From assembly GCA_965178125.1 (NCBI GenBank), contig OZ237753.1, forward strand, positions 1,054,001 through 1,099,322: a stretch of 45,322 bases of DNA. Direction: 5' to 3'. Positions 5,331 to 45,322 of the stretch are shown here, piece by piece. This DNA is from Bilabrum cf. latius (lineage: Eukaryota). The translations under genes were made by a program, and so were the position numbers. The notes beneath the pieces were generated by a model. The model had not been told where the DNA came from, did no database searches, and worked only from the letters and a program-made list of their open reading frames with translations. Within the stretch, counting starts at the first letter, position 1; every line of letters starts with the position of its first letter.

Positions 5331-7283
5331 TTAATCCCAGCCCTTCAACCATCGCCGCCTCGCGTGGTCATCGTGACTTGCCTCGAGGCAGTACACCCAA
5401 GGCGCGAAGTGCAGCCAAACGAGAAGGACGCCCAAGGTGAGATACTTGGTGACCCGCGGCGCGAACTGGTTGCACAACCGATCCACAAGAACCCCGAAGA
5501 TAAGCTCGCCGTAAAGGAGAGCAGGCATGTAGTGGTAGATGAATGCCGAACGGCTCACCAGGATGTACGGGAGGAGGTTGCACAGGTACACCAGGCACAG
5601 GTAGGTGACTATGCGCATGGTGGCTCCCCAGGAGCGAGGCAGGCGCAGCTCGGAGTCATGGCGGTATCGGCAGTACACGAACGCGAACCCGAACGCCACA
5701 CACACTCCGACTAGGATGAGCCAGATAACAGCAGGGTTTCCCAGCAGGTACACGAGCCGCTGCGTCTTCTTCACGCGGTCGACGTCCTCTGAAAAGTAGA
5801 GCAAGCCCCTCAGGTTGAGGGGCCAGGACCACCACTTGCTCATCCAGTGGTGAGGGGTGTCGATGCGGGCGTTCGCAGACAGCATCTCGTTGTTGAGCTG
5901 CCAGAAACTCGTCAAGAACCCCTGCTTGGGTGCATTGGCGTCGTAGTACTGGTTCCCCTCGAGGTTGCGCTGGAACTCGATCCTCATGAAGCCGTCGCCG
6001 TCGCCCGACAGGGGGAGAAGTTTGAAATGCCACCAGAACCAGTACGTGTAGATGGCGATGGCGCTCATGCCCATGACCAGCAGGTCAAGCAAGGCCACTG
6101 CCTCGCGCAGGAAGTACAGGCCGAACGCACACTCGAGCGCGATCATCCCGGGCGTTGCCAGCGCAGTCCACTTGATGCTCACCGCGCACCCGCACGCCAA
6201 GCCGAGCACCACTGCCCAGCGCATCCGCTCCCAGAACGACATGGTGCGCAGGGGAGCCGTGCTCCCTGCGTTGTCGACGATCTCACTCGCCACCTTGGTC
6301 TCGGAAGCGGCCAGCGGGTTCTTGAAGGTGCACGTTGCCCGCCAGCCAAGAGACCCGTACCCAGCCTGCGAGAGGCCCTTGCAGCGCTCATTGTCGTACT
6401 CGTCGAACACAAGGTCGTATTTGCTCAGCAGCGGCACCACCACGCGGTCCGCCATCGCAGAGGCGAGCTGAGCGGAGCCCGAGTTGCGGCCGCCATCCTT
6501 GTTGACAGCCGAGCTGACCTCGGCTTGCAACTTCTTCTGCCGCACCTCTGTCAGCTGCAGCAACTTGGCATCCTCGTGCTCGCGGCGACGCTAGAAATAG
6601 CACAGACCAATCCAGAGCGACAACACCGAGTAGAAGATCAGCTGGGAGTCCACCAGGATCAAGCGGCTCTCGATCAGATTCAAGTTGTCGAGGAGGAAAA
6701 AGGTTGTGACAAGAATGCTTGCCCAAACTGAGCAGCCCAGCCGCCGCGCAACGGAGTAAATAAAAGGCACAGTTGCGCAGCCAAATGATGCAGCCGCTAC
6801 TCGCAGTGGCATGAACTTGCAATCCGGGCCGTACTTGTAGTGAATGTGATCGTACCCGCATTTCTCAGCATCGTAACCCACAAGCCACCCCGCAAAGAGC
6901 AGGGTCAGCTTTCCTGCGATACAACATGAAAACATGAAACATACAATATTCACAGTCGCAATTTCTGACCGACTCCGGCAAAAGTTGCGAAGCTACAGCT
7001 GCACAGCTTGAAACTGCCGCTGCATCTCACCAAGAGGCGGGTGAATATCGAACAAGTACTTGCCCCGCATGTACTTCTGCACAAAATTTCCAAAATGGAA
7101 TTCATCAAATACAACAGCTGGGGGCTCCCTCAGCCTCCAAAAGCGCGTCGCCACCCCCAGGATGAACAGGATGAGCGGGGCCACGAACTCTGGCAGCCCA
7201 AAAACCGAGTTTTGGGGCAGTTCTTTGCGCTGGGCCCGAGCTTTGGCATTTTTATCGTCTGGGTCATAACCAGAGGGGGGCAT
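5331..7283 (-). CDS. PMT: Dolichyl-phosphate-mannose:protein O-mannosyltransferase (PMT, GT39), lacking the MIR domain; intron 6914-7030
   Basis: VVFDEFHFGNF, FDIHPPLG|KL across a GT-AG intron, ESRLILVDSQLIF, GLACGCAVSIKW, YLLGNP, FIYHYMPAL; in-frame TAG at 6591-6593; ends ...WLKGWD-TAA; start at 7283 is the most upstream in-frame ATG seen. Confidence 0.9.
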
Positions 7284-7424
7284 GGCGAGCTCAGTGCACC
7301 AGTCCAACCTGTCGTTCGCGCCTGCGATCCCTATTACAGACTGCCCTTTGATTAAATCTGCACGTTATTTGAAACCCAAAAATTCAACCGCATGAATAAA
7401 ACTGTAGATCACGGGCGTGCTAAG

Positions 7425-26760: not shown

Positions 26761-26880
26761 CCGTCCTCCCATTGGTTTGGTCACAGCAATGTATCAATAG
26801 TGCGGCCAAACAGGATTCTCTTGACCTCTTCAATATCCCGGATACGCTTATCACCGCCTATCCACCATCCCAGGGTTCTA

Positions 26881-27236
26881 GGCCCCATCCACCGCGCTGC
26901 CCACCAACCCGCTGACCACTCAACCACCAATCTGGGCCCCATCCACCGCGCTGTCCACCAACCCGCTGGCCACCCAACCACCACTCTGGGCCCAATCCAC
27001 CGCGCTGCCCACCAACCCGCTGACCACTCAACCACCAATCTGGGCCCCATCCACCGCGCTGCCCACCAACCCGCTGGCCACCCAACCACCACTCTGGGCC
27101 CAATCCACCGCGCTGCCCACCAACCCGCTGACCACTCAACCACCAATCTGGGCCCCATCCACCGCGCTGTCCACCAACCCGCTGGCCACCCAACCACCAA
27201 TCTGGGCCCCATCCACCGCGCTGCCCACCAACCCGC
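26881..27236. repeat. 54-bp subtelomeric minisatellite, ~6.6 copies, alternating variants (108-bp dimer)
   Basis: Unit GGCCCCATCCACCGCGCTGCCCACCAACCCGCTGACCACTCAACCACCAATCTG recurs at 26881, 26935 and onward; cut off by TTAGGG at 27237. Confidence 0.92.
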
Positions 27237-27281
27237 TTAGGGTTTAGGGTTAGGGTTAGGATTAGGGTTAGGGTTAGGGTT
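27237..27281 (+). repeat. Innermost short telomeric tract with variant units (TTTAGGG, TTAGGA)
   Basis: About 7 TTAGGG-like units. Confidence 0.9.
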
Positions 27282-28058
27282 AAGGGCACGCTGGAGCTGC
27301 AGGCTGGTTGCGATGAGGAGCAGAGCCTGGAGGCGCTCATGAATGGGCAGCTGTCGACCTTGCGCGATACAGTGGGCAACATGTGCATGCAGGAGCTGCC
27401 AAGCCACAACGCAGCGCGCATCATGGCAACATGTGGGTCGAAGGGCAGTGTTCTGAATATCTGCCAGATGACGGCTTGCGTGGGGCAGCAGAACGTAGGG
27501 GGCAAGCGCATTCCCGAGGGATTCGTGAGCCGCACCCTCCCCATTTTTAGAACAGGGGCCAAGGAGCCTGCGGCCAAAGGGTTCGTTGCGAATAGCTTCC
27601 GGTCCGGTCTGAATGCCACCGAGTTTTTCTTCCATACGATGGGTGGCCGGGAGGGGCTCGTGGATACCGCGGTGAAGACGGCCGAGACGGGGTACATGCA
27701 GCGCCGGATGGTCAAGGCGCTGGAGGACCTGTCTGTGCAGTACGACAACACCGTGCGGACGTCGAATGGAGACGTGGTGCAGACAATCTACGGGGATGAC
27801 TCCCTTGATCCGGGCCAGATGGAGAGCAATGGCAGGCCGGTGCACCTGGACCGGCTGTGGACGAACGTGCAGAATGACATGCCGTGCCCTGAGGAGCCAC
27901 CTTTGGGCAAGACGGAGATCGGGGAGGTGGTGGCCGCGGAGATGAAGTCGAACGTGTGGAAACCTTTGAACACGGACAGTTAGGGCAGTCGCGGGGCGCT
28001 AGCTGGTGGTCCCAAGTTCTGCGAAGACGTCAAAGAGTTCATGACAGGTCTGGCAGGC
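27282..28058 (+). pseudogene. RPC1: Internal fragment of RPC1 (funnel/bridge-helix region) flanked by telomeric repeats
   Basis: [91 protein letters not shown]; the frame is open from the junction and continues through TAG 27981 to KFCEDVKEFMTGLAG; both ends cut by TTAGGG. Confidence 0.9.
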
Positions 28059-28627
28059 TAGGGGTTAGGGTAGGGTTAGGGTTAGGGTTAGGGTTAGGGT
28101 TAGGGTTAGGGTTAGGGTTAGGGTTAGGGTTAGGGTTAGGGTTAGGGTTAGGGTTAGGGTTAGGGTTAGGGTTAGGGTTAGGGTTAGGGTTAGGGTTAGG
28201 GTTAGGGTTAGGGTTAGGGTTAGGGTTAGGGTTAGGGTTAGGGTTAGGGTTAGGGTTAGGGTTAGGGTTAGGGTTAGGGTTAGGGTTAGGGTTAGGGTTA
28301 GGGTTAGGGTTAGGGTTAGGGTTAGGGTTAGGGTTAGGGTTAGGGTTAGGGTTAGGGTTAGGGTTAGGGTTAGGGTTAGGGTTAGGGTTAGGGTTAGGGT
28401 TAGGGTTAGGGTTAGGGTTAGGGTTAGGGTTAGGGTTAGGGTTAGGGTTAGGGTTAGGGTTAGGGTTAGGGTTAGGGTTAGGGTTAGGGTTAGGGTTAGG
28501 GTTAGGGTTAGGGTTAGGGTTAGGGTTAGGGTTAGGGTTAGGGTTAGGGTTAGGGTTAGGGTTAGGGTTAGGGTTAGGGTTAGGGTTAGGGTTAGGGTTA
28601 GGGTTAGGGTTAGGGTTAGGGTTAGGG

Positions 28628-29725
28628 TATCTAATATAAAGTCAGGGACAGGGTCGGGGAAAAAATATTTTCATCTTCATTTTTTTGTCGAAAATGTGCC
28701 CTCTGCGATCTCAGCAACTAGAATAGGTATGAAGATGATTCAAACTGTTTTGGGATGGCCTAGGGCCATATCATGGGGCAAATGTTCCCCAGGTTCCGTT
28801 TTGACCGCGCGGCGACGATACTGGCTGATGAAGATTTACATGCCGAAAATGTGCCCTCTGCGATCTCAGCAACTAGAATAGGTATGAAGATGATTCAAAC
28901 TGTTTTGGGATGGCCTAGGGCCATATCATGGGGCAAATGTTCCCCAGGTTCCGTTTTGACCGCGCGGCGACGATACTGGCTGATGAAGATTTACATGCCG
29001 AAAATGTGCCCTCTGCGATCTCAGCAACTAGAATAGGTATGAAGATGATTCAAACTGTTTTGGGACGGCCTAGGGCCATATCATGGGGCAAATGTTCCCC
29101 AGGTTCCGTTTTGACCGCGCGGCGACGATACTGGCTGATGAAGATTTACATGCCGAAAATGTGCCCTCTGCGATCTCAGCAACTAGAATAGGTATGAAGA
29201 TGATTCAAACTGTTTTGGGACGGCCTAGGGCCATATCATGGGGCAAATGTTCCCCAGGTTCCGTTTTGACCGCGCGGCGACGATACTGGCTGATGAAGAT
29301 TTACATGCCGAAAATGTGCCCTCTGCGATCTCAGCAACTAGAATAGGTATGAAGATGATTCAAACTGTTTTGGGACGGCCTAGGGCCATATCATGGGGCA
29401 AATGTTTGCCAGGGTTTGTTTACATCATGCAGCGGAAGTATGGAGTTTTCAAACTCACCCGGTGGGGGTTTGCAAACCTACCCAAGGGGGTCTACAAACC
29501 TACACTGCTTGGTTCGAGAAGCTAGCGGTTATTGACCGATGTTAGATGCCATGGCTCGTTCTACCTAGCTATTTGTATGCGTTAAACCCACTTTGCTAGA
29601 TACATTGCTTTGATATCAGGCTTCCATTGGGTGATGGTCAAGACTAAACAGAATGCCTCCTGGCTCGTACAAATGCGTCCTAAATTGGATCACTGGCAGG
29701 CACTTTGGCAAACTCCTCTCACAAG
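28628..29725. mobile_element. Telomere-inserted element copy 1 (155-bp subfamily A, ~4.6 units, plus unique tail)
   Basis: Common head at 28628; units contain GTGCCCTCTGCGATCTCAGCAACTAGAATAGG; tail ends ...CTCCTCTCACAAG. Confidence 0.75.
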
Positions 29726-29830: not shown

Positions 29831-31295
29831 TATCTAATATAAAGTCAGGGACAGGGTCGGGGAAAAAAAATTTTCATCTTCACTTTTTGTCGAAAAAATG
29901 CGCGCGACGATCTCGGCAACCAGATGAGATATGAGGACCGTTCAAACTGCATCGGGACGGCCTGGGGGTACAATGTTGGGCAAATGTTCCCCAGGTTCCG
30001 TTTATACCGCGCGGCGACAATATGGCTGGACGAAGATTGTCATGCAGAAAAAATGCGCGCGACGATCTCGGCAACCAGATGAGATATGAAGACCGTTCAA
30101 ACTGCATCGGGACGGCCTGGGGGTACAATGTGGGGCAAATGTTCCCCAGGTTCCGTTTTGACCGCGCGGCGACAATATGGCTGGACAAAGATTGTCATGC
30201 AGAAAAAATGCGCGCGACGATCTCGGCAACCAGATGAGATATGAAGACCGTTCAAACTGCATCGGGACGGCCTGGGACCACAACAGGGGGCAAATGTTCC
30301 CCAGGTTCCGTTTTGACCGCGCGGCGACAATATGGCTGGACGAAGATTGTCATGCAGAAAAAATGCGCGCGACGATCTCGGCAACCAGATGAGATATGAA
30401 GACCGTTCAAACTGCATCGGGACGGCCTGGGGGTACAATGTGGGGCAAATGTTCCCCAGGTTCCGTTTTGACCGCGCGGCGACAATATGGCTGGACGAAG
30501 ATTGTCATGCAGAAAAAATGCGCGCGACGATCTCGGCAACCAGATGAGATATGAAGACCGTTCAAACTGCATCGGGACGGCCTGGGGGTACAATGTGGGG
30601 CAAATGTTCCCCAGGTTCCGTTTTGACCGCGCGGCGACAATATGGCTGGACGAAGATTGTCATGCAGAAAAAATGCGCGCGACGATCTCGGCAACCAGAT
30701 GAGATATGAAGACCGTTCAAACTGCATCGGGACGGCCTGGGGGTACAATGTGGGGCAAATGTTCCCCAGGTTCCGTTTTGACCGCGCGGCGACAATATGG
30801 CTGGACGAAGATTGTCATGCAGAAAAAATGCGCGCGACGATCTCGGCAACCAGATGAGATATGAAGACCGTTCAAACTGCATCGGGACGGCCTGGGGGTA
30901 CAATGTGGGGCAAATGTTCCCCAGGTTCCGTTTTGACCGCGCGGCGACAATATGGCTGGACGAAGATTGTCATGCAGAAAAAATGCGCGCGACGATCTCG
31001 GCAACCAGATGAGATATGAAGACCGTTCAAACTGCATCGGGACGGCCTGGGGGTACAATGTGGGGCAAATGTTCCCCAGGTTCCGTTTTGACCGCGCGGC
31101 GACAATATGGCTGGACGAAGATTGTCATGCAGAAAAAATGCGCGCGACGATCTCGGCAACCAGATGAGATATGAAGACCGTTCAAACTGCATCGGGACGG
31201 CCTGGGGGTACAATGTGGGGCAAATGTTCCCCAGGTTCCGTTTTGACCGCGCGGCGACAATATGGCTGGACGAAGATTGTCATGCAGAAAAAATG
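29831..31295. mobile_element. Element copy 2 (subfamily B, ~9 units, ends inside the array)
   Basis: Common head; units contain ATGCGCGCGACGATCTCGGCAACCAGATGAG. Confidence 0.75.
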
Positions 31296-31728
31296 GGTAG
31301 GGTTAGGGTTAGGGTTAGGGTTAGGGTTAGGGTTAGGGTTAGGGTTAGGGTTAGGGTTAGGGTTAGGGTTAGGGTTAGGGTTAGGGTTAGGGTTAGGGTT
31401 AGGGTTAGGGTTAGGGTTAGGGTTAGGGTTAGGGTTAGGGTTAGGGTTAGGGTTAGGGTTAGGGTTAGGGTTAGGGTTAGGGTTAGGGTTAGGGTTAGGG
31501 TTAGGGTTAGGGTTAGGGTTAGGGTTAGGGTTAGGGTTAGGGTTAGGGTTAGGGTTAGGGTTAGGGTTAGGGTTAGGGTTAGGGTTAGGGTTAGGGTTAG
31601 GGTTAGGGTTAGGGTTAGGGTTAGGGTTAGGGTTAGGGTTAGGGTTAGGGTTAGGGTTAGGGTTAGGGTTAGGGTTAGGGTTAGGGTTAGGGTTAGGGTT
31701 AGGGTTAGGGTTAGGGTTAGGGTTAGGG

Positions 31729-33263
31729 TATCTAATATAAAGTCAGGGACAGGGTCGGGGAAAAAATATTTTCATCTTCAATATTTGTCGAAAAACGACG
31801 TGCTACGATCTCGGTAACTACAGGTGATATGAAGACCGTTCAAACTGCATCGGGACGGCCTGGGGGCACAACATGGGCCAAATGTTCCCCAGGTTCCGTT
31901 CTGGCCGCGTGGCGCCGATATGGGTGTATGAAGAATTTCACACCGAAAAACGACGTGCTACGATCTCGGCAACTACAGGTGATATGAAGACCGTTCAAAC
32001 TGCATCGGGACGGCCTGGGGGCACAACATGGGCCAAATGTTCCCCAGGTTCCGTTCTGGCCGCGCGGCGCCGATATGGGTGTATGAAGAATTTCACACCG
32101 AAAAACGACGTGCTACGATCTCGGCAACTACAGGTGATATGAAGACCGTTCAAACTGCATCGGGACGGCCTGGGGGCACAACATGGGCCAAATGTTCCCC
32201 AGGTTCCGTTCTGGCCGCGCGGCGCCGATATGGGTGTATGAAGAATTTCACACCGAAAAACGACGTGCTACGATCTCGGCAACTACAGGTGATATGAAGA
32301 CCGTTCAAACTGCATCGGGACGGCCTGGGGGCACAACATGGGCCAAATGTTCCCCAGGTTCCGTTCTGGCCGCGCGGCGCCGATATGGGTGTATGAAGAA
32401 TTTCACACCGAAAAACGACGTGCTACGATCTCGGCAACTACAGGTGATATGAAGACCGTTCAAACTGCATCGGGACGGCCTGGGGGCACAACATGGGCCA
32501 AATGTTCCCCAGGTTCCGTTCTGGCCGCGCGGCGCCGATATGGGTGTATGAAGAATTTCACACCGAAAAACGACGTGCTACGATCTCGGCAACTACAGGT
32601 GATATGAAGACCGTTCAAACTGCATCGGGACGGCCTGGGGGCACAACATGGGCCAAATGTTCCCCAGGTTCCGTTCTGGCCGCGCGGCGCCGATATGGGT
32701 GTATGAAGAATTTCACACCGAAAAACGACGTGCTACGATCTCGGCAACTACAGGTGATATGAAGACCGTTCAAACTGCATCGGGACGGCCTGGGAGCACA
32801 ACATGGGCCAAATGTTCCCCAGGTTCCGTTCTGGCCGCGCGGCGCCGATATGGGTGTATGAAGATTTGCATGTTTATTCAATATGCATGGTTTATCTGTC
32901 AATTGTAGAATGGGTATGGTGTACATGACAGTTGTATTTGCTGTGTGGATTGCTTTGATCTAAGGTATTAACTGGTTGACACGTCAAGACTCAACAGAAT
33001 GCCTCCCGGCTCCTAATGCTGCGTCCGAATGGGTCAATGGCAGACACTTTGGCAAACTCCTCTCACAAGCTGGCCCAGCTGCCACTGACCTCAATTGCCG
33101 TCCCCCTGCCTGCCTCTCACTCGTCACCGAAAGCTGCTAGGAGCGCTTCCACAGCGTCGACGTCTGCCGCATTGAGATCTCCTTTCGCCGTCTTCTCGAG
33201 GGCCGTCATCAGGTTTGCGAACATTTCCAACTCGCGGTCCCTCTCTTCAATTGTTGCCTCGGT
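31729..33263. mobile_element. Element copy 3 (subfamily C, ~7 units, longest tail, including a minus-strand ORF end)
   Basis: Common head; units contain ACGACGTGCTACGATCTCGGCAACTACAGG; tail homologous to the copy 1 tail, then ~195 extra bp. Confidence 0.75.
33117..33263 (-). pseudogene. 5'-truncated C-terminal ORF fragment at the distal end of copy 3
   Basis: TEATIEERDRELEMFANLMTALEKTAKGDLNAADVDAVEALLAAFGDE-TGA, open up to the telomere junction, protein-like helical composition. Confidence 0.5.
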
Positions 33264-33646
33264 TTAGGTTAGGGTTAGGGTTAGGGTTAGGGTTAGGGTT
33301 AGGGTTAGGGTTAGGGTTAGGGTTAGGGTTAGGGTTAGGGTTAGGGTTAGGGTTAGGGTTAGGGTTAGGGTTAGGGTTAGGGTTAGGGTTAGGGTTAGGG
33401 TTAGGGTTAGGGTTAGGGTTAGGGTTAGGGTTAGGGTTAGGGTTAGGGTTAGGGTTAGGGTTAGGGTTAGGGTTAGGGTTAGGGTTAGGGTTAGGGTTAG
33501 GGTTAGGGTTAGGGTTAGGGTTAGGGTTAGGGTTAGGGTTAGGGTTAGGGTTAGGGTTAGGGTTAGGGTTAGGGTTAGGGTTAGGGTTAGGGTTAGGGTT
33601 AGGGTTAGGGTTAGGGTTAGGGTTAGGGTTAGGGTTAGGGTTAGGG

Positions 33647-34956
33647 TATCTAATATAAAGTCAGGGACAGGGTCGGGGAAAAAAAATTTTCATCTTCACT
33701 TTTTGTCGAAAAAATGCGCGCGACGATCTCGGCAACCAGATGAGATATGAGGACCGTTCAAACTGCATCGGGACGGCCTGGGGGTACAATGTTGGGCAAA
33801 TGTTCCCCAGGTTCCGTTTATACCGCGCGGCGACAATATGGCTGGACGAAGATTGTCATGCAGAAAAAATGCGCGCGACGATCTCGGCAACCAGATGAGA
33901 TATGAAGACCGTTCAAACTGCATCGGGACGGCCTGGGGGTACAATGTGGGGCAAATGTTCCCCAGGTTCCGTTTTGACCGCGCGGCGACAATATGGCTGG
34001 ACAAAGATTGTCATGCAGAAAAAATGCGCGCGACGATCTCGGCAACCAGATGAGATATGAAGACCGTTCAAACTGCATCGGGACGGCCTGGGACCACAAC
34101 AGGGGGCAAATGTTCCCCAGGTTCCGTTTTGACCGCGCGGCGACAATATGGCTGGACGAAGATTGTCATGCAGAAAAAATGCGCGCGACGATCTCGGCAA
34201 CCAGATGAGATATGAAGACCGTTCAAACTGCATCGGGACGGCCTGGGGGTACAATGTGGGGCAAATGTTCCCCAGGTTCCGTTTTGACCGCGCGGCGACA
34301 ATATGGCTGGACGAAGATTGTCATGCAGAAAAAATGCGCGCGACGATCTCGGCAACCAGATGAGATATGAAGACCGTTCAAACTGCATCGGGACGGCCTG
34401 GGGGTACAATGTGGGGCAAATGTTCCCCAGGTTCCGTTTTGACCGCGCGGCGACAATATGGCTGGACGAAGATTGTCATGCAGAAAAAATGCGCGCGACG
34501 ATCTCGGCAACCAGATGAGATATGAAGACCGTTCAAACTGCATCGGGACGGCCTGGGGGTACAATGTGGGGCAAATGTTCCCCAGGTTCCGTTTTGACCG
34601 CGCGGCGACAATATGGCTGGACGAAGATTGTCATGCAGAAAAAATGCGCGCGACGATCTCGGCAACCAGATGAGATATGAAGACCGTTCAAACTGCATCG
34701 GGACGGCCTGGGGGTACAATGTGGGGCAAATGTTCCCCAGGTTCCGTTTTGACCGCGCGGCGACAATATGGCTGGACGAAGATTGTCATGCAGAAAAAAT
34801 GCGCGCGACGATCTCGGCAACCAGATGAGATATGAAGACCGTTCAAACTGCATCGGGACGGCCTGGGGGTACAATGTGGGGCAAATGTTCCCCAGGTTCC
34901 GTTTTGACCGCGCGGCGACAATATGGCTGGACGAAGATTGTCATGCAGAAAAAATG
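33647..34956. mobile_element. Element copy 4 (subfamily B, ~8 units; same variants and end point as copy 2)
   Basis: Shares the diagnostic unit variants and the GCAGAAAAAATG-GGTAGGG junction with copy 2; 155 bp shorter. Confidence 0.75.
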
Positions 34957-35059
34957 GGTAGGGTTAGGGTTAGGGTTAGGGTTAGGGTTAGGGTTAGGGT
35001 TAGGGTTAGGGTTAGGGTTAGGGTTAGGGTTAGGGTTAGGGTTAGGGTTAGGGTTAGGG

Positions 35060-36054
35060 TATCTAATATAAAGTCAGGGACAGGGTCGGGGAAAAAATAT
35101 TTTCATCTTCACTTTTTGTCGAAAAAATACAACATAGGATCTCGGCAACCACAGGAGATATGAAGACCGTTGAAACGGCATTAGGACCGCCTAGGGGCAC
35201 AACATGGGGCAAATGCTCCCCAGGTTCCGTTTTTGTCGCGCGGCGCCGATATGGATCGATGAAGATTTACATGCTGCAAAAATACAACATAGGATCTCGG
35301 CAACCACAGGAGATATGAAGACCGTTGAAACGGCATTAGGACCGCCTAGGGGCACAACATGGGGCAAATGTTCCCCAGGTTCCGTTTTTGTCGCGCGGCG
35401 CCGATATGGATCGATGAAGATTTACATGCTGCAAAAATACAACATAGGATCTCGGCAACCACAGGAGATATGAAGACCGTTGAAACGGCATTAGGACCGC
35501 CTAGGGGCACAACATGGGGCAAATGTTCCCCAGGTTCCGTTTTTGTCGCGCGGTGCCGATATGGATCGATGAAGATTTACATGCTGCAAAAATACAACAT
35601 AGGATTTCGGCAACCACAGGAGATATGAAGACCGTTGAAACGGCATTAGGACCGCCTAGGGGCACAACATGGGGCAAATGTTCCCCAGGTTCCGTTTTTG
35701 TCGCGCGGTGCCGATATGGATCGATGAAGATTTACATGCTGCAAAAATACAACATAGGATCTCGGCAACCACAGGAGATATGAAGACCGTTGAAACGGCA
35801 TTAGGACCGCCTGGGGGCACAACATGGGGCAAATGTTCCCCAGGTTCCGTTTTTGTCGCGCGGCGCCGATATGGATCGATGAAGATTTACATGCTGCAAA
35901 AATACAACATAGGATCTCGGCAACCACAGGAGATATGAAGACCGTTGAAACGGCATTAGGACCGCCTAGGGGCACAACATGGGGCAAATGTTCCCCAGGT
36001 TCCGTTTTTGTCGCGCGGCGCCGATATGGATCGATGAAGATTTACATGCTGCAA
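35060..36054. mobile_element. Element copy 5 (subfamily D, ~6 units, followed by G10)
   Basis: Common head; units contain AATACAACATAGGATCTCGGCAACCACAGGAG. Confidence 0.75.
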
Positions 36055-36365
36055 GGGGGGGGGGTTAAGGGTTAGGGTTAGGGTTAGGGTTAGGGTTAGG
36101 GTTAGGGTTAGGGTTAGGGTTAGGGTTAGGGTTAGGGTTAGGGTTAGGGTTAGGGTTAGGGTTAGGGTTAGGGTTAGGGTTAGGGTTAGGGTTAGGGTTA
36201 GGGTTAGGGTTAGGGTTAGGGTTAGGGTTAGGGTTAGGGTTAGGGTTAGGGTTAGGGTTAGGGTTAGGGTTAGGGTTAGGGTTAGGGTTAGGGTTAGGGT
36301 TAGGGTTAGGGTTAGGGTTAGGGTTAGGGTTAGGGTTAGGGTTAGGGTTAGGGTTAGGGTTAGGG

Positions 36366-37360
36366 TATCTAATATAAAGTCAGGGACAGGGTCGGGGAAA
36401 AAATATTTTCATCTTCACTTTTTGTCGAAAAAATACAACATAGGATCTCGGCAACCACAGGAGATATGAAGACCGTTGAAACGGCATTAGGACCGCCTAG
36501 GGGCACAACATGGGGCAAATGCTCCCCAGGTTCCGTTTTTGTCGCGCGGCGCCGATATGGATCGATGAAGATTTACATGCTGCAAAAATACAACATAGGA
36601 TCTCGGCAACCACAGGAGATATGAAGACCGTTGAAACGGCATTAGGACCGCCTAGGGGCACAACATGGGGCAAATGTTCCCCAGGTTCCGTTTTTGTCGC
36701 GCGGCGCCGATATGGATCGATGAAGATTTACATGCTGCAAAAATACAACATAGGATCTCGGCAACCACAGGAGATATGAAGACCGTTGAAACGGCATTAG
36801 GACCGCCTAGGGGCACAACATGGGGCAAATGTTCCCCAGGTTCCGTTTTTGTCGCGCGGTGCCGATATGGATCGATGAAGATTTACATGCTGCAAAAATA
36901 CAACATAGGATTTCGGCAACCACAGGAGATATGAAGACCGTTGAAACGGCATTAGGACCGCCTAGGGGCACAACATGGGGCAAATGTTCCCCAGGTTCCG
37001 TTTTTGTCGCGCGGTGCCGATATGGATCGATGAAGATTTACATGCTGCAAAAATACAACATAGGATCTCGGCAACCACAGGAGATATGAAGACCGTTGAA
37101 ACGGCATTAGGACCGCCTGGGGGCACAACATGGGGCAAATGTTCCCCAGGTTCCGTTTTTGTCGCGCGGCGCCGATATGGATCGATGAAGATTTACATGC
37201 TGCAAAAATACAACATAGGATCTCGGCAACCACAGGAGATATGAAGACCGTTGAAACGGCATTAGGACCGCCTAGGGGCACAACATGGGGCAAATGTTCC
37301 CCAGGTTCCGTTTTTGTCGCGCGGCGCCGATATGGATCGATGAAGATTTACATGCTGCAA
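36366..37360. mobile_element. Element copy 6 (duplicate of copy 5)
   Basis: 1306-bp period, same variants and G10 junction. Confidence 0.75.
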
Positions 37361-37671
37361 GGGGGGGGGGTTAAGGGTTAGGGTTAGGGTTAGGGTTAGG
37401 GTTAGGGTTAGGGTTAGGGTTAGGGTTAGGGTTAGGGTTAGGGTTAGGGTTAGGGTTAGGGTTAGGGTTAGGGTTAGGGTTAGGGTTAGGGTTAGGGTTA
37501 GGGTTAGGGTTAGGGTTAGGGTTAGGGTTAGGGTTAGGGTTAGGGTTAGGGTTAGGGTTAGGGTTAGGGTTAGGGTTAGGGTTAGGGTTAGGGTTAGGGT
37601 TAGGGTTAGGGTTAGGGTTAGGGTTAGGGTTAGGGTTAGGGTTAGGGTTAGGGTTAGGGTTAGGGTTAGGG

Positions 37672-38666
37672 TATCTAATATAAAGTCAGGGACAGGGTCG
37701 GGGAAAAAATATTTTCATCTTCACTTTTTGTCGAAAAAATACAACATAGGATCTCGGCAACCACAGGAGATATGAAGACCGTTGAAACGGCATTAGGACC
37801 GCCTAGGGGCACAACATGGGGCAAATGCTCCCCAGGTTCCGTTTTTGTCGCGCGGCGCCGATATGGATCGATGAAGATTTACATGCTGCAAAAATACAAC
37901 ATAGGATCTCGGCAACCACAGGAGATATGAAGACCGTTGAAACGGCATTAGGACCGCCTAGGGGCACAACATGGGGCAAATGTTCCCCAGGTTCCGTTTT
38001 TGTCGCGCGGCGCCGATATGGATCGATGAAGATTTACATGCTGCAAAAATACAACATAGGATCTCGGCAACCACAGGAGATATGAAGACCGTTGAAACGG
38101 CATTAGGACCGCCTAGGGGCACAACATGGGGCAAATGTTCCCCAGGTTCCGTTTTTGTCGCGCGGTGCCGATATGGATCGATGAAGATTTACATGCTGCA
38201 AAAATACAACATAGGATTTCGGCAACCACAGGAGATATGAAGACCGTTGAAACGGCATTAGGACCGCCTAGGGGCACAACATGGGGCAAATGTTCCCCAG
38301 GTTCCGTTTTTGTCGCGCGGTGCCGATATGGATCGATGAAGATTTACATGCTGCAAAAATACAACATAGGATCTCGGCAACCACAGGAGATATGAAGACC
38401 GTTGAAACGGCATTAGGACCGCCTGGGGGCACAACATGGGGCAAATGTTCCCCAGGTTCCGTTTTTGTCGCGCGGCGCCGATATGGATCGATGAAGATTT
38501 ACATGCTGCAAAAATACAACATAGGATCTCGGCAACCACAGGAGATATGAAGACCGTTGAAACGGCATTAGGACCGCCTAGGGGCACAACATGGGGCAAA
38601 TGTTCCCCAGGTTCCGTTTTTGTCGCGCGGCGCCGATATGGATCGATGAAGATTTACATGCTGCAA
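37672..38666. mobile_element. Element copy 7 (duplicate of copy 5)
   Basis: 1306-bp period, same variants and G10 junction. Confidence 0.75.
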
Positions 38667-38875
38667 GGGGGGGGGGTTAAGGGTTAGGGTTAGGGTTAGG
38701 GTTAGGGTTAGGGTTAGGGTTAGGGTTAGGGTTAGGGTTAGGGTTAGGGTTAGGGTTAGGGTTAGGGTTAGGGTTAGGGTTAGGGTTAGGGTTAGGGTTA
38801 GGGTTAGGGTTAGGGTTAGGGTTAGGGTTAGGGTTAGGGTTAGGGTTAGGGTTAGGGTTAGGGTTAGGGTTAGGG

Positions 38876-39652
38876 TATCTAATATAAAGTCAGGGACAGG
38901 GTCGGGGAAAAAATATTTTCATCTTCAATATTTGTCGAAAAACGACGTGCTACGATCTCGGCAACTACAGGTGATATGAAGACCGTTCAAACTGCATCGG
39001 GACGGCCTGGGGGCACAACATGGGCCAAATGTTCCCCAGGTTCCGTTCTGGCCGCGCGGCGCCGATATGGGTGTATGAAGAATTTCACACCGAAAAACGA
39101 CGTGCTACGATCTCGGCAACTACAGGTGATATGAAGACCGTTCAAACTGCATCGGGACGGCCTGGGGGCACAACATGGGCCAAATGTTCCCCAGGTTCCG
39201 TTCTGGCCGCGCGGCGCCGATATGGGTGTATGAAGAATTTCACACCGAAAAACGACGTGCTACGATCTCGGCAACTACAGGTGATATGAAGACCGTTCAA
39301 ACTGCATCGGGACGGCCTGGGGGCACAACATGGGCCAAATGTTCCCCAGGTTCCGTTCTGGCCGCGCGGCGCCGATATGGGTGTATGAAGAATTTCACAC
39401 CGAAAAACGACGTGCTACGATCTCGGCAACTACAGGTGATATGAAGACCGTTCAAACTGCATCGGGACGGCCTGGGGGCACAACATGGGCCAAATATTCC
39501 CCAGGTTCCGTTCTGGCCGCGCGGCGCTGATATGGGTGTATGAAGATTTGCATGTCTATTCAATATGCATGGTTTATCTGTCAATTGTAGAATGGGGATG
39601 GTGTACATGACAGTTGTATTTGCTGTGTGGATTGCTTTGATCTAAGGTATTA
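38876..39652. mobile_element. Element copy 8 (subfamily C, ~4 units, partial tail)
   Basis: Tail matches copy 3 up to TCTAAGGTATTA, then telomeric repeats. Confidence 0.75.
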
Positions 39653-39901
39653 GGGTTAAGGTTAGGGTTAGGGTTAGGGTTAGGGTTAGGGTTAGGGTTA
39701 GGGTTAGGGTTAGGGTTAGGGTTAGGGTTAGGGTTAGGGTTAGGGTTAGGGTTAGGGTTAGGGTTAGGGTTAGGGTTAGGGTTAGGGTTAGGGTTAGGGT
39801 TAGGGTTAGGGTTAGGGTTAGGGTTAGGGTTAGGGTTAGGGTTAGGGTTAGGGTTAGGGTTAGGGTTAGGGTTAGGGTTAGGGTTAGGGTTAGGGTTAGG
39901 G

Positions 39902-41656
39902 TATCTAATATAAAGTCAGGGACAGGGTCGGGGAAAAAAAATTTTCATCTTCACTTTTTGTCGAAAAAATGCGCGCGACGATCTCGGCAACCAGATGAGA
40001 TATGAGGACCGTTCAAACTGCATCGGGACGGCCTGGGGGTACAATGTGGGGCAAATGTTCCCCAGGTTCCGTTTTGACCGCGCGGCGACAATATGGCTGG
40101 ACGAAGATTGTCATGCAGAAAAAATGCGCGCAACGATCTCGGCAACCAGATGAGATATGAAGACTGTTCAAACTGCATCGGGACGGCCTGGGGGTACAAT
40201 GTTAGGCAAATGTTCCCCAGGTTCCGTTTATACCGCGCGGCGACAATATGGCTGGACGAAGATTGTCATGCAGAAAAAATGCGCGCGACGATCTCGGCAA
40301 CCAGATGAGATATGAAGACCGTTCAAACTGCATCGGGACGGCCTGGGACCACAACTGGGGGCAAATGTTCCCCAGGTTCCGTTTATACCGCGCGGCGACA
40401 ATATGGCTGGACGAAGATTGTCATGCAGAAAAAATGCGCGCGGCGATCTCGGCAACCAGATGAGATATGAAGACCGTTCAAACTGCATCGGGACGGCCTG
40501 GGACCACAACTGGGGGCAAATGTTCCCCAGGTTCCGTTTATACCGCGCGGCGACAATATGGCTGGACGAAGATTGTCATGCAGAAAAAATGCGCGCGACG
40601 ATCTCGGCAACCAGATGAGATATGAAGACCGTTCATACTGCATCGGGACGGCCTGGGGGTACAATGTGGGGCAAATGTTCCCCAGATTCCGTTTTGACCG
40701 CGCGGCGACAGTATGGGGGGACGAAGATTTTCAGGCAGAAAAAATGCGCGCGGCGATCTCGGCAACCACAGGAGATATGAAGACCGTTCAAACTGCATCG
40801 GGACGGCCTGGGACCACAACTGGGGGCAAATGTTCCCCAGGTTCCGTTTATACCGCGCGGCGACAATATGGCTGGACGAAGATTGTCATGCAGAAAAAAT
40901 GCGCGCGGCGATCTCGGCAACCAGATGAGATATGAAGACCGTTCAAACTGCATCGGGACGGCCTGGGACCACAACTGGGGGCAAATGTTCCCCAGGTTCC
41001 GTTTATTCCGCGCGGCGACAATATGGCTGGACGAAGATTGTCATGCAGAAAAAATGCGCGCGACGATCTCGGCAACCAGATGAGATATGAAGACCGTTCA
41101 TACTGCATCGGGACGGCCTGGGGGTACAATGTGGGGCAAATGTTCCCCAGATTCCGTTTTGACCGCGCGGCGACAGTATGGGGGGACGAAGATTTTCAGG
41201 CAGAAAAAATGCGCGCGGCGATCTCGGCAACCACAGGAGATATGAAGACCGTTCAAACTGCATCGGGACGGCCTGGGACCACAACAGGGGGCAAATGTTC
41301 CCCAGGTTCCGTTTATACCGCGCGGCGACAGTATGGTGGGACGAAGATTGTCATGCAGAAAAAATGCGCGCGGCGATCTCGGCAACCAGATGAGATATGA
41401 AGACCGTTCAAACTGCATCGGGACGGCCTGGGACCACAACTGGGGGCAAATGTTCCCCGTGATTCTATTACATCAAGCATTGCAAGTATGGGGTTTGCAC
41501 ACCTACATGGTTGGGTTTGCATACGTACATGGGTTCGGGTTAGGTAAGAGGTTTTCCTTAGGGGCGTTCATTAGCTGTAAATGAGATTTCTTGATTTCAG
41601 CCGTTCATTCGCACTTTGAGTCATCATCATGTGTCATGTGTGCGAAGTTTGGAGAA
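39902..41656. mobile_element. Element copy 9 (subfamily B variant, ~9.6 heterogeneous units, plus unique tail)
   Basis: Common head; B-type units with a 465-bp internal duplication; tail related to the start of the copy 1 tail. Confidence 0.75.
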
Positions 41657-42039
41657 TAGGGTTAGGGTTAGGGTTAGGGTTAGGGTTAGGGTTAGGGTTA
41701 GGGTTAGGGTTAGGGTTAGGGTTAGGGTTAGGGTTAGGGTTAGGGTTAGGGTTAGGGTTAGGGTTAGGGTTAGGGTTAGGGTTAGGGTTAGGGTTAGGGT
41801 TAGGGTTAGGGTTAGGGTTAGGGTTAGGGTTAGGGTTAGGGTTAGGGTTAGGGTTAGGGTTAGGGTTAGGGTTAGGGTTAGGGTTAGGGTTAGGGTTAGG
41901 GTTAGGGTTAGGGTTAGGGTTAGGGTTAGGGTTAGGGTTAGGGTTAGGGTTAGGGTTAGGGTTAGGGTTAGGGTTAGGGTTAGGGTTAGGGTTAGGGTTA
42001 GGGTTAGGGTTAGGGTTAGGGTTAGGGTTAGGGTTAGGG

Positions 42040-42816
42040 TATCTAATATAAAGTCAGGGACAGGGTCGGGGAAAAAATATTTTCATCTTCAATATTTGTC
42101 GAAAAACGACGTGCTACGATCTCGGCAACTACAGGTGATATGAAGACCGTTCAAACTGCATCGGGACGGCCTGGGGGCACAACATGGGCCAAATGTTCCC
42201 CAGGTTCCGTTCTGGCCGCGCGGCGCCGATATGGGTGTATGAAGAATTTCACACCGAAAAACGACGTGCTACGATCTCGGCAACTACAGGTGATATGAAG
42301 ACCGTTCAAACTGCATCGGGACGGCCTGGGGGCACAACATGGGCCAAATGTTCCCCAGGTTCCGTTCTGGCCGCGCGGCGCCGATATGGGTGTATGAAGA
42401 ATTTCACACCGAAAAACGACGTGCTACGATCTCGGCAACTACAGGTGATATGAAGACCGTTCAAACTGCATCGGGACGGCCTGGGGGCACAACATGGGCC
42501 AAATGTTCCCCAGGTTCCGTTCTGGCCGCGCGGCGCCGATATGGGTGTATGAAGAATTTCACACCGAAAAACGACGTGCTACGATCTCGGCAACTACAGG
42601 TGATATGAAGACCGTTCAAACTGCATCGGGACGGCCTGGGGGCACAACATGGGCCAAATATTCCCCAGGTTCCGTTCTGGCCGCGCGGCGCTGATATGGG
42701 TGTATGAAGATTTGCATGTCTATTCAATATGCATGGTTTATCTGTCAATTGTAGAATGGGGATGGTGTACATGACAGTTGTATTTGCTGTGTGGATTGCT
42801 TTGATCTAAGGTATTA
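42040..42816. mobile_element. Element copy 10 (duplicate of copy 8)
   Basis: 3164-bp period. Confidence 0.75.
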
Positions 42817-43065
42817 GGGTTAAGGTTAGGGTTAGGGTTAGGGTTAGGGTTAGGGTTAGGGTTAGGGTTAGGGTTAGGGTTAGGGTTAGGGTTAGGGTTA
42901 GGGTTAGGGTTAGGGTTAGGGTTAGGGTTAGGGTTAGGGTTAGGGTTAGGGTTAGGGTTAGGGTTAGGGTTAGGGTTAGGGTTAGGGTTAGGGTTAGGGT
43001 TAGGGTTAGGGTTAGGGTTAGGGTTAGGGTTAGGGTTAGGGTTAGGGTTAGGGTTAGGGTTAGGG

Positions 43066-44820
43066 TATCTAATATAAAGTCAGGGACAGGGTCGGGGAAA
43101 AAAAATTTTCATCTTCACTTTTTGTCGAAAAAATGCGCGCGACGATCTCGGCAACCAGATGAGATATGAGGACCGTTCAAACTGCATCGGGACGGCCTGG
43201 GGGTACAATGTGGGGCAAATGTTCCCCAGGTTCCGTTTTGACCGCGCGGCGACAATATGGCTGGACGAAGATTGTCATGCAGAAAAAATGCGCGCAACGA
43301 TCTCGGCAACCAGATGAGATATGAAGACTGTTCAAACTGCATCGGGACGGCCTGGGGGTACAATGTTAGGCAAATGTTCCCCAGGTTCCGTTTATACCGC
43401 GCGGCGACAATATGGCTGGACGAAGATTGTCATGCAGAAAAAATGCGCGCGACGATCTCGGCAACCAGATGAGATATGAAGACCGTTCAAACTGCATCGG
43501 GACGGCCTGGGACCACAACTGGGGGCAAATGTTCCCCAGGTTCCGTTTATACCGCGCGGCGACAATATGGCTGGACGAAGATTGTCATGCAGAAAAAATG
43601 CGCGCGGCGATCTCGGCAACCAGATGAGATATGAAGACCGTTCAAACTGCATCGGGACGGCCTGGGACCACAACTGGGGGCAAATGTTCCCCAGGTTCCG
43701 TTTATACCGCGCGGCGACAATATGGCTGGACGAAGATTGTCATGCAGAAAAAATGCGCGCGGCGATCTCGGCAACCAGATGAGATATGAAGACCGTTCAT
43801 ACTGCATCGGGACGGCCTGGGGGTACAATGTGGGGCAAATGTTCCCCAGATTCCGTTTTGACCGCGCGGCGACAGTATGGGGGGACGAAGATTTTCAGGC
43901 AGAAAAAATGCGCGCGGCGATCTCGGCAACCACAGGAGATATGAAGACCGTTCAAACTGCATCGGGACGGCCTGGGACCACAACTGGGGGCAAATGTTCC
44001 CCAGGTTCCGTTTATACCGCGCGGCGACAATATGGCTGGACGAAGATTGTCATGCAGAAAAAATGCGCGCGGCGATCTCGGCAACCAGATGAGATATGAA
44101 GACCGTTCAAACTGCATCGGGACGGCCTGGGACCACAACTGGGGGCAAATGTTCCCCAGGTTCCGTTTATTCCGCGCGGCGACAATATGGCTGGACGAAG
44201 ATTGTCATGCAGAAAAAATGCGCGCGACGATCTCGGCAACCAGATGAGATATGAAGACCGTTCATACTGCATCGGGACGGCCTGGGGGTACAATGTGGGG
44301 CAAATGTTCCCCAGATTCCGTTTTGACCGCGCGGCGACAGTATGGGGGGACGAAGATTTTCAGGCAGAAAAAATGCGCGCGGCGATCTCGGCAACCACAG
44401 GAGATATGAAGACCGTTCAAACTGCATCGGGACGGCCTGGGACCACAACAGGGGGCAAATGTTCCCCAGGTTCCGTTTATACCGCGCGGCGACAGTATGG
44501 TGGGACGAAGATTGTCATGCAGAAAAAATGCGCGCGGCGATCTCGGCAACCAGATGAGATATGAAGACCGTTCAAACTGCATCGGGACGGCCTGGGACCA
44601 CAACTGGGGGCAAATGTTCCCCGTGATTCTATTACATCAAGCATTGCAAGTATGGGGTTTGCACACCTACATGGTTGGGTTTGCATACGTACATGGGTTC
44701 GGGTTAGGTAAGAGGTTTTCCTTAGGGGCGTTCATTAGCTGTAAATGAGATTTCTTGATTTCAGCCGTTCATTCGCACTTTGAGTCATCATCATGTGTCA
44801 TGTGTGCGAAGTTTGGAGAA
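43066..44820. mobile_element. Element copy 11 (near-duplicate of copy 9)
   Basis: 3164-bp period; at least one substitution and one junction difference versus copy 9. Confidence 0.75.
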
Positions 44821-45096
44821 TAGGGTTAGGGGTTAGGGTTAGGGTTAGGGTTAGGGTTAGGGTTAGGGTTAGGGTTAGGGTTAGGGTTAGGGTTAGGGTT
44901 AGGGTTAGGGTTAGGGTTAGGGTTAGGGTTAGGGTTAGGGTTAGGGTTAGGGTTAGGGTTAGGGTTAGGGTTAGGGTTAGGGTTAGGGTTAGGGTTAGGG
45001 TTAGGGTTAGGGTTAGGGTTAGGGTTAGGGTTAGGGTTAGGGTTAGGGTTAGGGTTAGGGTTAGGGTTAGGGTTAGGGTTAGGGTTAGGGTTAGGG

Positions 45097-45139
45097 TATC
45101 TAATATAAAGTCAGGGACAGGGTCGGGGAAAAAATATTT
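45097..45139. mobile_element. Element copy 12: head only (~43 bp)
   Basis: TATCTAATATAAAGTCAGGGACAGGGTCGGGGAAAAAATATTT followed by AGGTTAGGG. Confidence 0.75.
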
Positions 45140-45322
45140 AGGTTAGGGTTAGGGTTAGGGTTAGGGTTAGGGTTAGGGTTAGGGTTAGGGTTAGGGTTAG
45201 GGTTAGGGTTAGGGTTAGGGTTAGGGTTAGGGTTAGGGTTAGGGTTAGGGTTAGGGTTAGGGTTAGGGTTAGGGTTAGGGTTAGGGTTAGGGTTAGGGTT
45301 AGGGTTAGGGTTAGGGTTAGGG
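45138..45322 (+). repeat. Final (TTAGGG)n tract, probable chromosome end
   Basis: Pure TTAGGG to the end of the window, G-strand running 5'->3' outward. Confidence 0.85.

Follow-up and report, generated by a model that had tools for sequence, protein, structure and literature searches.

Stacked cassettes of orphan genes inside the telomeres of Bilabrum cf. latius

Telomere-dwelling elements and the end of contig C19

The telomere-dwelling elements described so far comprise retroelements (HeT-A, MoTeR, Terminons), the Helitrons of Paramecium and helicase-bearing Y′ units. Here we describe gene-bearing cassettes from the telomeres of Bilabrum cf. latius, which are Y′-like in their working and resemble MoTeRs, Terminons and Paramecium Helitrons in their look; the comparison fails for each of these systems at the characteristic enzyme. 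In the head-to-tail arrays of the Drosophila elements HeT-A and TART, the proximal end is fixed and the distal ends vary. The cassettes share this arrangement, having one orientation, a fixed proximal (3′) end and variable distal truncation, but they show no poly(A) junction and no gag or RT match, telomerase is present, and true TTAGGG tracts lie between the units. No ORF resembling RT or gag was found in the element or in an autonomous array partner.

In Saccharomyces cerevisiae, Y′ elements are ORF-bearing units with internal tandem repeats that are stacked at chromosome ends behind interstitial telomeric tracts and spread by break-induced replication (BIR) or circles in a telomerase-positive host (PMC13177704; PMC4222662). 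The cassettes are likewise tandem ORF units behind interstitial telomeric tracts, at chromosome ends only, and their shared junctions suggest BIR. Y′ carries a helicase and is not cut by de novo telomeres (PMC13177704), whereas the cassettes carry two divergent orphan ORFs, fall into at least four families and are mostly truncated and healed; Pfam, PDB and database searches gave no match indicating a helicase or Y′ homology. Magnaporthe MoTeR1 and MoTeR2 share with the cassettes arrays within TTAGGG tracts, fixed orientation, truncation with de novo telomeres, duplication by BIR or D-loop and capture of internal DNA (PMC7367193); MoTeR1 encodes an RT, and none was found in the cassettes. Paramecium telomeric Helitrons also lie in one orientation in telomeric repeats, are rich in satellites and carry giant ORFs facing either way under purifying selection, with many ORF-less copies (PMC13085455); unlike the cassettes, they possess HUH-Rep and Pif1, a stem-loop RTS and a distal LTS. 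The cassettes have no Rep or helicase match, their fixed end is proximal and family 1 lacks a defined distal end. Bdelloid Terminons (Athena; endonuclease-less Penelope-like) are giant multi-ORF telomeric elements with distal truncation by telomeric repeats and host genes captured between units (PMC6431247), features seen here as well, but they have an RT and a 3′ hammerhead by C-rich repeats, neither of which was found in the cassettes. Thraustochytrid LORE-TEARS are satellite spacers with rDNA and are not reported to bear such ORFs (bioRxiv 2023.06.15.545109). We found no description of this system in the literature searched; a prior description is possible, and within that scope the orphan-gene cassettes of these telomeres form a set that had not been described.

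The window, a stretch of 45,322 nucleotides, is the right end of contig C19 in a eukaryotic assembly of 48.6 Mb. From 28062 to the window end, TTAGGG tracts separate stacked units, with 12 heads counted, all described here on the plus strand unless stated otherwise. The focal copy is attached to a tract of 72 repeats (31298..31729) and begins with a conserved head (31730..31788) at the junction TTAGGGT|ATCT. The head is followed by a 155-bp tandem array of 6.9 units (31789..32864), whose unit is subfamily-specific, and by a spacer or tail that runs from the array to the ORF A stop (32865..33116) and includes the cassette-internal CACAAG (33064–33069). The minus strand of 33117..33260 holds the end of ORF A, its last 47 codons and TGA; complete copies have 512 aa. 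At the truncation point lies an irregular seed, GGTTTAGG (33261..33268), common to copies on C22 and C85 and probably a product of de novo telomere addition. A tract of 63 repeats (33269..33647) caps the focal copy and bears the next head.

Copy 1 (28629..29725) belongs to a different subfamily and is cut just past CACAAG at a unique junction. Two further copies (29832..31297 and 33648..34958) are cut within the 155-bp array at identical junctions. Beyond them stand three tandem copies with identical truncation and seed (35061..38683; period 1306 bp), a block of two copies of 785 bp and about 1760 bp that occurs twice (38877..45097; period 3164 bp) and a last head cut after about 42 bp (45098..45142), followed by the terminal tract.

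An earlier note on this window had reported a minus-strand frame at 33263..33069 with 48 codons before a TGA at 33117–33119, abutting telomeric DNA, in the copy with the longest tail. Translation bears this out, and the non-array tail of the focal copy is the longest among the 12 heads; because the first codon is supplied by the seed GGTTTAGG, the element DNA accounts for 47 codons. An open frame of 48 codons is by itself within chance, given 60% GC and TAG read through. We take the frame as real because 9 of its 12 exact genomic copies continue past 33260, three of them with the whole 512-aa ORF, as the note had supposed in treating it as part of something longer; the other three (C19, C22 and C85) have the window's cut and seed. 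Consistent with this, window 32865–33260 is identical to the donor copy on C25 at 396 of 396 positions, and the window copy and the longer donor diverge past 33260. The 195-bp stretch has at least 42 genome matches (40 of 57 candidates scored), all of them at the ends of contigs except for one on C14, which adjoins an internal telomere array abutting an N gap. At that place (L026/L071, C14 at about 700 kb), the internal array is accompanied by a cassette running into the gap, and two chromosomes have probably been scaffolded together.

Proximal to the stack, a 770-bp piece of the gene for the RNA polymerase largest subunit (Rpb1 domains 4–5; 27285–28060) lies between two TTAGGG tracts. The gene itself stands 29 kb inward, at C19:1052134, and the piece copies it at 99% with orientation kept, so cassette sequence is not needed for end capture here. 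A C-rich minisatellite of 46–56 bp lies immediately before the first telomere tract on many ends, at 26877–27237 in the window and also at L143, L099, L144, L103, L156, L166, L168 and L181; its core is often CCATCC(A/G)(C/T)CGC, its units vary between ends, and it also terminates the family 4 cassette.

Cassette genes and related families

A full family 1 cassette measures about 12 kb. On the G strand, its order is tract, head, 155-bp array, optional arrays of 21, 22, 167 and 410 bp (subfamily-specific), tail, ORF A facing inward, a spacer of about 890 bp, ORF B facing outward and thus divergent, further repeats and tract. The genome-wide search for a longer version of the window's frame found ORF A intact in nine complete variants of 509–526 aa, all open with TAG read through. 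Pairwise dN/dS is mostly 0.43–0.67 overall (about 0.5), 0.26–0.6 in the N-domain and near 1 in the last 85 columns at the C-terminus, where the window's piece falls. All 33 genome matches of the N-domain lie at contig ends, which leaves no internal parent gene. ORF A is restricted to telomeric arrays, and CACAAG is internal to the cassette. The long K/R-rich middle of ORF A predicts nucleic-acid binding. The N-domain model is helical (pLDDT 51), and a fold search with it returned no usable match (best Z 5.8); aa 1–180 had no match in a database search, nor had the ORF A profile among metagenome contigs. Next to a telomere at L142 (C20:1152–1304) lies a weak (49%) match to the N-domain, possibly a relic of another subfamily.

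ORF B encodes 2328 aa with 13 TAG codons and has a dN/dS of 0.16–0.19. It is complete in three single-stretch records and its end was located at four places; in two complete copies the sequence diverges directly after the stop. A leader intron is supported by one contig (depth 4.9) of run X6, a guessed RNA run marked 'probably DNA', which joins L024 4874 to 5238 across GT..AG. The intron signals are retained in 36 of 37 locus records, which counts for spread as DNA, although the retention says nothing if there was an RNA intermediate of the strand antisense to ORF B. A P-loop is lacking in ORF B, which has a single H-x-H; neither ORF A nor ORF B contains a [YF]xDD motif, and a Pfam search of ORFs A, B, B′, A′ and C returned no match. 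Residues 320–1519 of ORF B, searched against 1.84 billion representatives, gave five matches, all 97–100% identical, and the C-terminal 828 aa gave none; a B/B′/C profile retrieved two self-fragments from the database and had no matches among PDB sequences or viral contigs. These searches and those with ORF A were length-limited or word-seeded, and phmmer barely detects B against B′, so that they do not prove the absence of homologues. The structure model of the ORF B core has a pLDDT of 34.

Two candidate features of the cassette were rejected. The spacer between ORFs A and B contains no tRNA gene in 10 loci; at L024:4590–4680 it holds a tRNA-like stretch with a T-arm-like motif by eye, which neither ARAGORN nor Rfam called. 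Terminal inverted repeats were suggested by two 22-bp arrays at the left end of C25 (L096): the one on the distal side of ORF B reads as the reverse complement of the one that precedes ORF A proximally in the same subfamily. In the other complete copy, however, the distal repeat is not the same.

Surveying 60 more stretches from chromosome ends, together with a census of the sequence after each tract, revealed three more fixed heads. Family 2 starts with T|ATCAGGGGG and has a 339-bp array (L145, L148, L153), family 3 starts with T|ATCTGGGGG and has an array of 319–331 bp (L165, L180, L190/L206), and family 4 starts with TT|ACAGTACC. The layout of family 3 is that of family 1, with remote homologues of both genes: in hhalign, A′ and A match along 157 columns with a probability of 91.5% (E 8.6e-7), and B′ and B along 449 columns with 28% identity and a probability of 80% (E 1.4e-5; eight shuffles reached at most 1.1%), the shared core lying at about residues 860–1360 of B. 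The A′ N-domain has a dN/dS of 0.16. Family 4 (L197:2863–9366, L181, L203, L072) carries the inward ORF C of 2167 codons, known in two variants with a dN/dS of 0.22, plus a small divergent frame, and terminates in a 53-bp minisatellite and a tract, resembling a native chromosome end. A weakly scoring colinear segment is common to ORF C, B′ and B; the match of ORF C is moderate to B′ (E 8e-5, hhalign 30%) and weak to B alone (E 0.009, hhalign 0.8%). By eye, families 1–3 have T|ATC as a common junction register and the same succession of motifs, ATCW..GTCA..AGG(G/A)TCGG, their heads otherwise having only short motifs in common; the heads of families 1, 2 and 4 start A-TCT, ATCA and TTAC, respectively. 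The ORFs of the three T|ATC families are conserved across 22–28% identity. Three further homologies were tried and discarded: family 4 ORF D as a counterpart of ORF A (hhalign 0.1%), the ORF A C-terminus with A′ (signal not above decoys) and the end of a family 2 ORF with the A′ C-terminus (weak, with a domain E of 2e-4 and a whole-sequence E of 2).

The direction of the window's frame had been offered as a clue to polarity. This clue is lost, since the 2328-aa ORF B runs the opposite way in the same cassette; the giant ORF faces outward in two families and inward in one (family 4), so ORF direction gives no direction for an RNA intermediate.

Junctions, recombination and candidate enzymes

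The head pattern occurs 231 times in the genome (control 0). Among 100 of the 231 listed, heads are oriented toward the near contig end, the C14 join excepted, and all 158 overlapping locus-level records have the junction TTAGGGT|ATCT. Distal junctions fall anywhere, usually with irregular G/T seeds. We located 212 distinct heads, 174 of them with a distal tract within the same stretch; the other 38, longer or edge copies, were excluded, which biases the lengths toward short. The 174 resolved copies sort into 66 junction types. Of these copies, 33 have a junction of their own, and the other 141 have an exact junction and seed in common with another copy; 23 of the 66 types recur across different contig ends and 19 recur within a single end. 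The bias to short copies is strong, 151 of the 174 ending before CACAAG. Multi-element blocks are also repeated whole, one of 7.8 kb three times on C17 and one of 12.2 kb three times on C36.

The commonest event visible in the sequence is the duplication of units already cut and capped, a DNA event; the shared junctions demonstrate such re-duplication, not the first origin of each truncation. Assembly duplication may account for part of the sharing, C82 and C85 being small contigs. A fixed proximal end with a ragged, healed distal end is thus on its own no proof of retrotransposition.

We consider it somewhat more probable than all contrary readings taken together that these are telomere-resident two-gene DNA cassettes, spread in a Y′-like manner in which break-induced recombination acts together with healing by telomerase. 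In this scheme, a telomere that is short or broken would pair with the TTAGGG tract preceding a donor cassette, from which copying would proceed outward by BIR or a D-loop. Copying, or later breakage, would stop at random points, and telomerase, the likely source of the seeds, would re-cap the end. ORFs A and B may act as helpers at chromosome ends. Pairing in the tract and break-induced copying would explain the fixed proximal junction, and early stops or later breaks healed by telomerase would account for the raggedness of the distal ends as well as for the host piece captured here. The genome has TERT as a single frame of 1767 codons, apparently intact. Published work documents the same route for Y′ acquisition in yeast (PMC4222662) and, as BIR or D-loop duplication, for MoTeR arrays (PMC7367193). 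Against the Y′-like reading, most copies here are truncated by de novo telomeres, unlike yeast Y′ (PMC13177704). Moreover, the common T|ATC, the motif order and the ORF conservation have the look of an end that dedicated machinery recognises, not of a passively inherited junction; the Y′-like model does not readily explain the retention of T|ATC or the selection on the giant ORFs.

These last features would be expected if an enzyme encoded by the element (ORF B, B′ or C), or a Helitron Rep-helicase acting in trans, joined the head to the telomeric 3′ end, a reading that we regard as unlikely. The head would be recognised and joined after TTAGGGT, a DNA strand of variable length would be peeled off, and recombination would multiply the products. 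The shared T|ATC start of three families, the dN/dS of 0.16–0.22 of the giant ORFs and the B/B′ alignment all fit this scheme. Helitrons have a fixed 5′ end and a variable 3′ end, and the G strand of the cassettes has the same polarity. In fixed orientation, satellite load and ORFs facing either way, the cassettes also resemble the Paramecium telomeric Helitrons; the start (LTS) of those elements is distal and they encode their own transposase (PMC13085455), and the comparison of heads rests on the text of that account. The enzyme searches speak against the scheme. No cassette contains an HUH-Rep or Pif1 match; the two genome matches of PF14214 (Helitron_like_N) and the six of PF05970 (PIF1) are all internal, and blastn of cassette parts against the C14 and C21 Helitron regions gave no match. 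The ends of the C21 Helitron are unlike those of the cassettes, the C14 comparison being made without its 5′ end. In addition, ORF B has the motif content given above, no conserved distal end was seen, and head folding is weak (z about −2), with no strong hairpin. A new class of telomere-targeting element, in which B/B′/C recognise the ATC..GTCA..AGGGTCGG head and graft the cassette without RT, HUH or DDE, with ORF A as partner, is a minority possibility. The conserved giant proteins may be new telomere-targeting machinery.

We likewise doubt that the cassettes are non-autonomous telomeric retroelements, comparable to MoTeR2 or Terminon fragments, served by an RT in trans, and this we think rather improbable. 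A C-strand RNA ending in CCCUAA would anneal to the overhang and be reverse-transcribed, and the 5′ truncations would then be healed. The fixed proximal end, the variable and mostly short distal ends and the position of ORF A on the C strand are compatible with this, and the genome offers many RTs (84 RVT_1 matches, some CRE-like by eye). None of the 84 lies in a cassette, however, and the sole end-proximal RT, on C37 about 10 kb from an end, is outside telomeric repeats; no RT was found in the cassettes or in any telomere-inserted family examined. RVT_1 recovers TERT only at E 0.028, so a Penelope-type RT elsewhere could be missed; a TERT-domain query of the genome returned TERT itself and no others. 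The head junction has no poly(A), and no hammerhead was detected by Rfam at E ≤ 0.5 on six loci or as a core with stem II in 87 distinct 400-nt heads. The array and head may be the long 3′ UTR that the note proposed; a weak hint to the contrary, that the ORF A mRNA ends near CACAAG, comes from two guessed-RNA runs other than X6, of separate studies, whose contigs terminate at window positions 33057 and 33070. The hint is weakened further by a contig of run X5 that also ends at 33070. The tail and the 155-bp unit are uncovered in three guessed-RNA runs and covered in X5; a contig gap proves nothing. Part of the earlier note's retroelement layout holds: the element is multicopy and telomeric, its proximal end is fixed, and its distal ends vary and are healed by telomeric repeats. 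A link to an RT found no support, and neither enzyme nor RNA evidence backs the retroelement reading.

The note's alternative, in which a short element would truly end at CACAAG and the ORF piece would be host flank carried once, is suggested by copy 1, which does halt at the identical CACAAG (29720–29725), but it is extremely improbable and is refuted by longer copies: all nine full ORF A variants follow CACAAG colinearly, it is the stop point of one of the 23 copies (one of the 14 junction types) resolved at or past it, and ORF A, with 33 of 33 N-domain matches at contig ends, has no non-telomeric host copy.

Cassette stacks stand at most chromosome ends of a telomerase-positive eukaryote, in at least four old families, and the giant proteins of 1100–2300 residues are under strong purifying selection, with nothing to match them among the databases searched. 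One possibility is that recombination by the host has been enough to maintain several gene-bearing parasites or helpers of the telomere over deep time; the other is that the giant proteins are a new end-joining or mobilisation enzyme.

Genetic code and other loci

TAG is a sense codon in host genes and in RT families and transposons (for example, window 5331–7364), and TAA and TGA are stops. Opposite TAG, Q accounts for 14 of 59 site-residue pairs, L for 9 and E for 7. Glutamine is the likeliest meaning, though not settled, and the ORFs were provisionally translated with it; the Q excess is equivocal, since a transition would give the same. One host TAG aligns with K, and one test gene has no TAG.

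Internal Helitron-like Rep/helicase loci are found at L135–L137 (C21:880–900 kb) and L132–L134 (C14:471–498 kb). The C21 locus is flanked on both sides by tandem units of about 1.24 kb, each with a terminal hairpin and CTAG. At L151, L163, L184 and L198, the DNA beyond telomere tracts at contig ends is gene-dense and bacterial-looking by eye, probably reflecting mis-joins or contamination.
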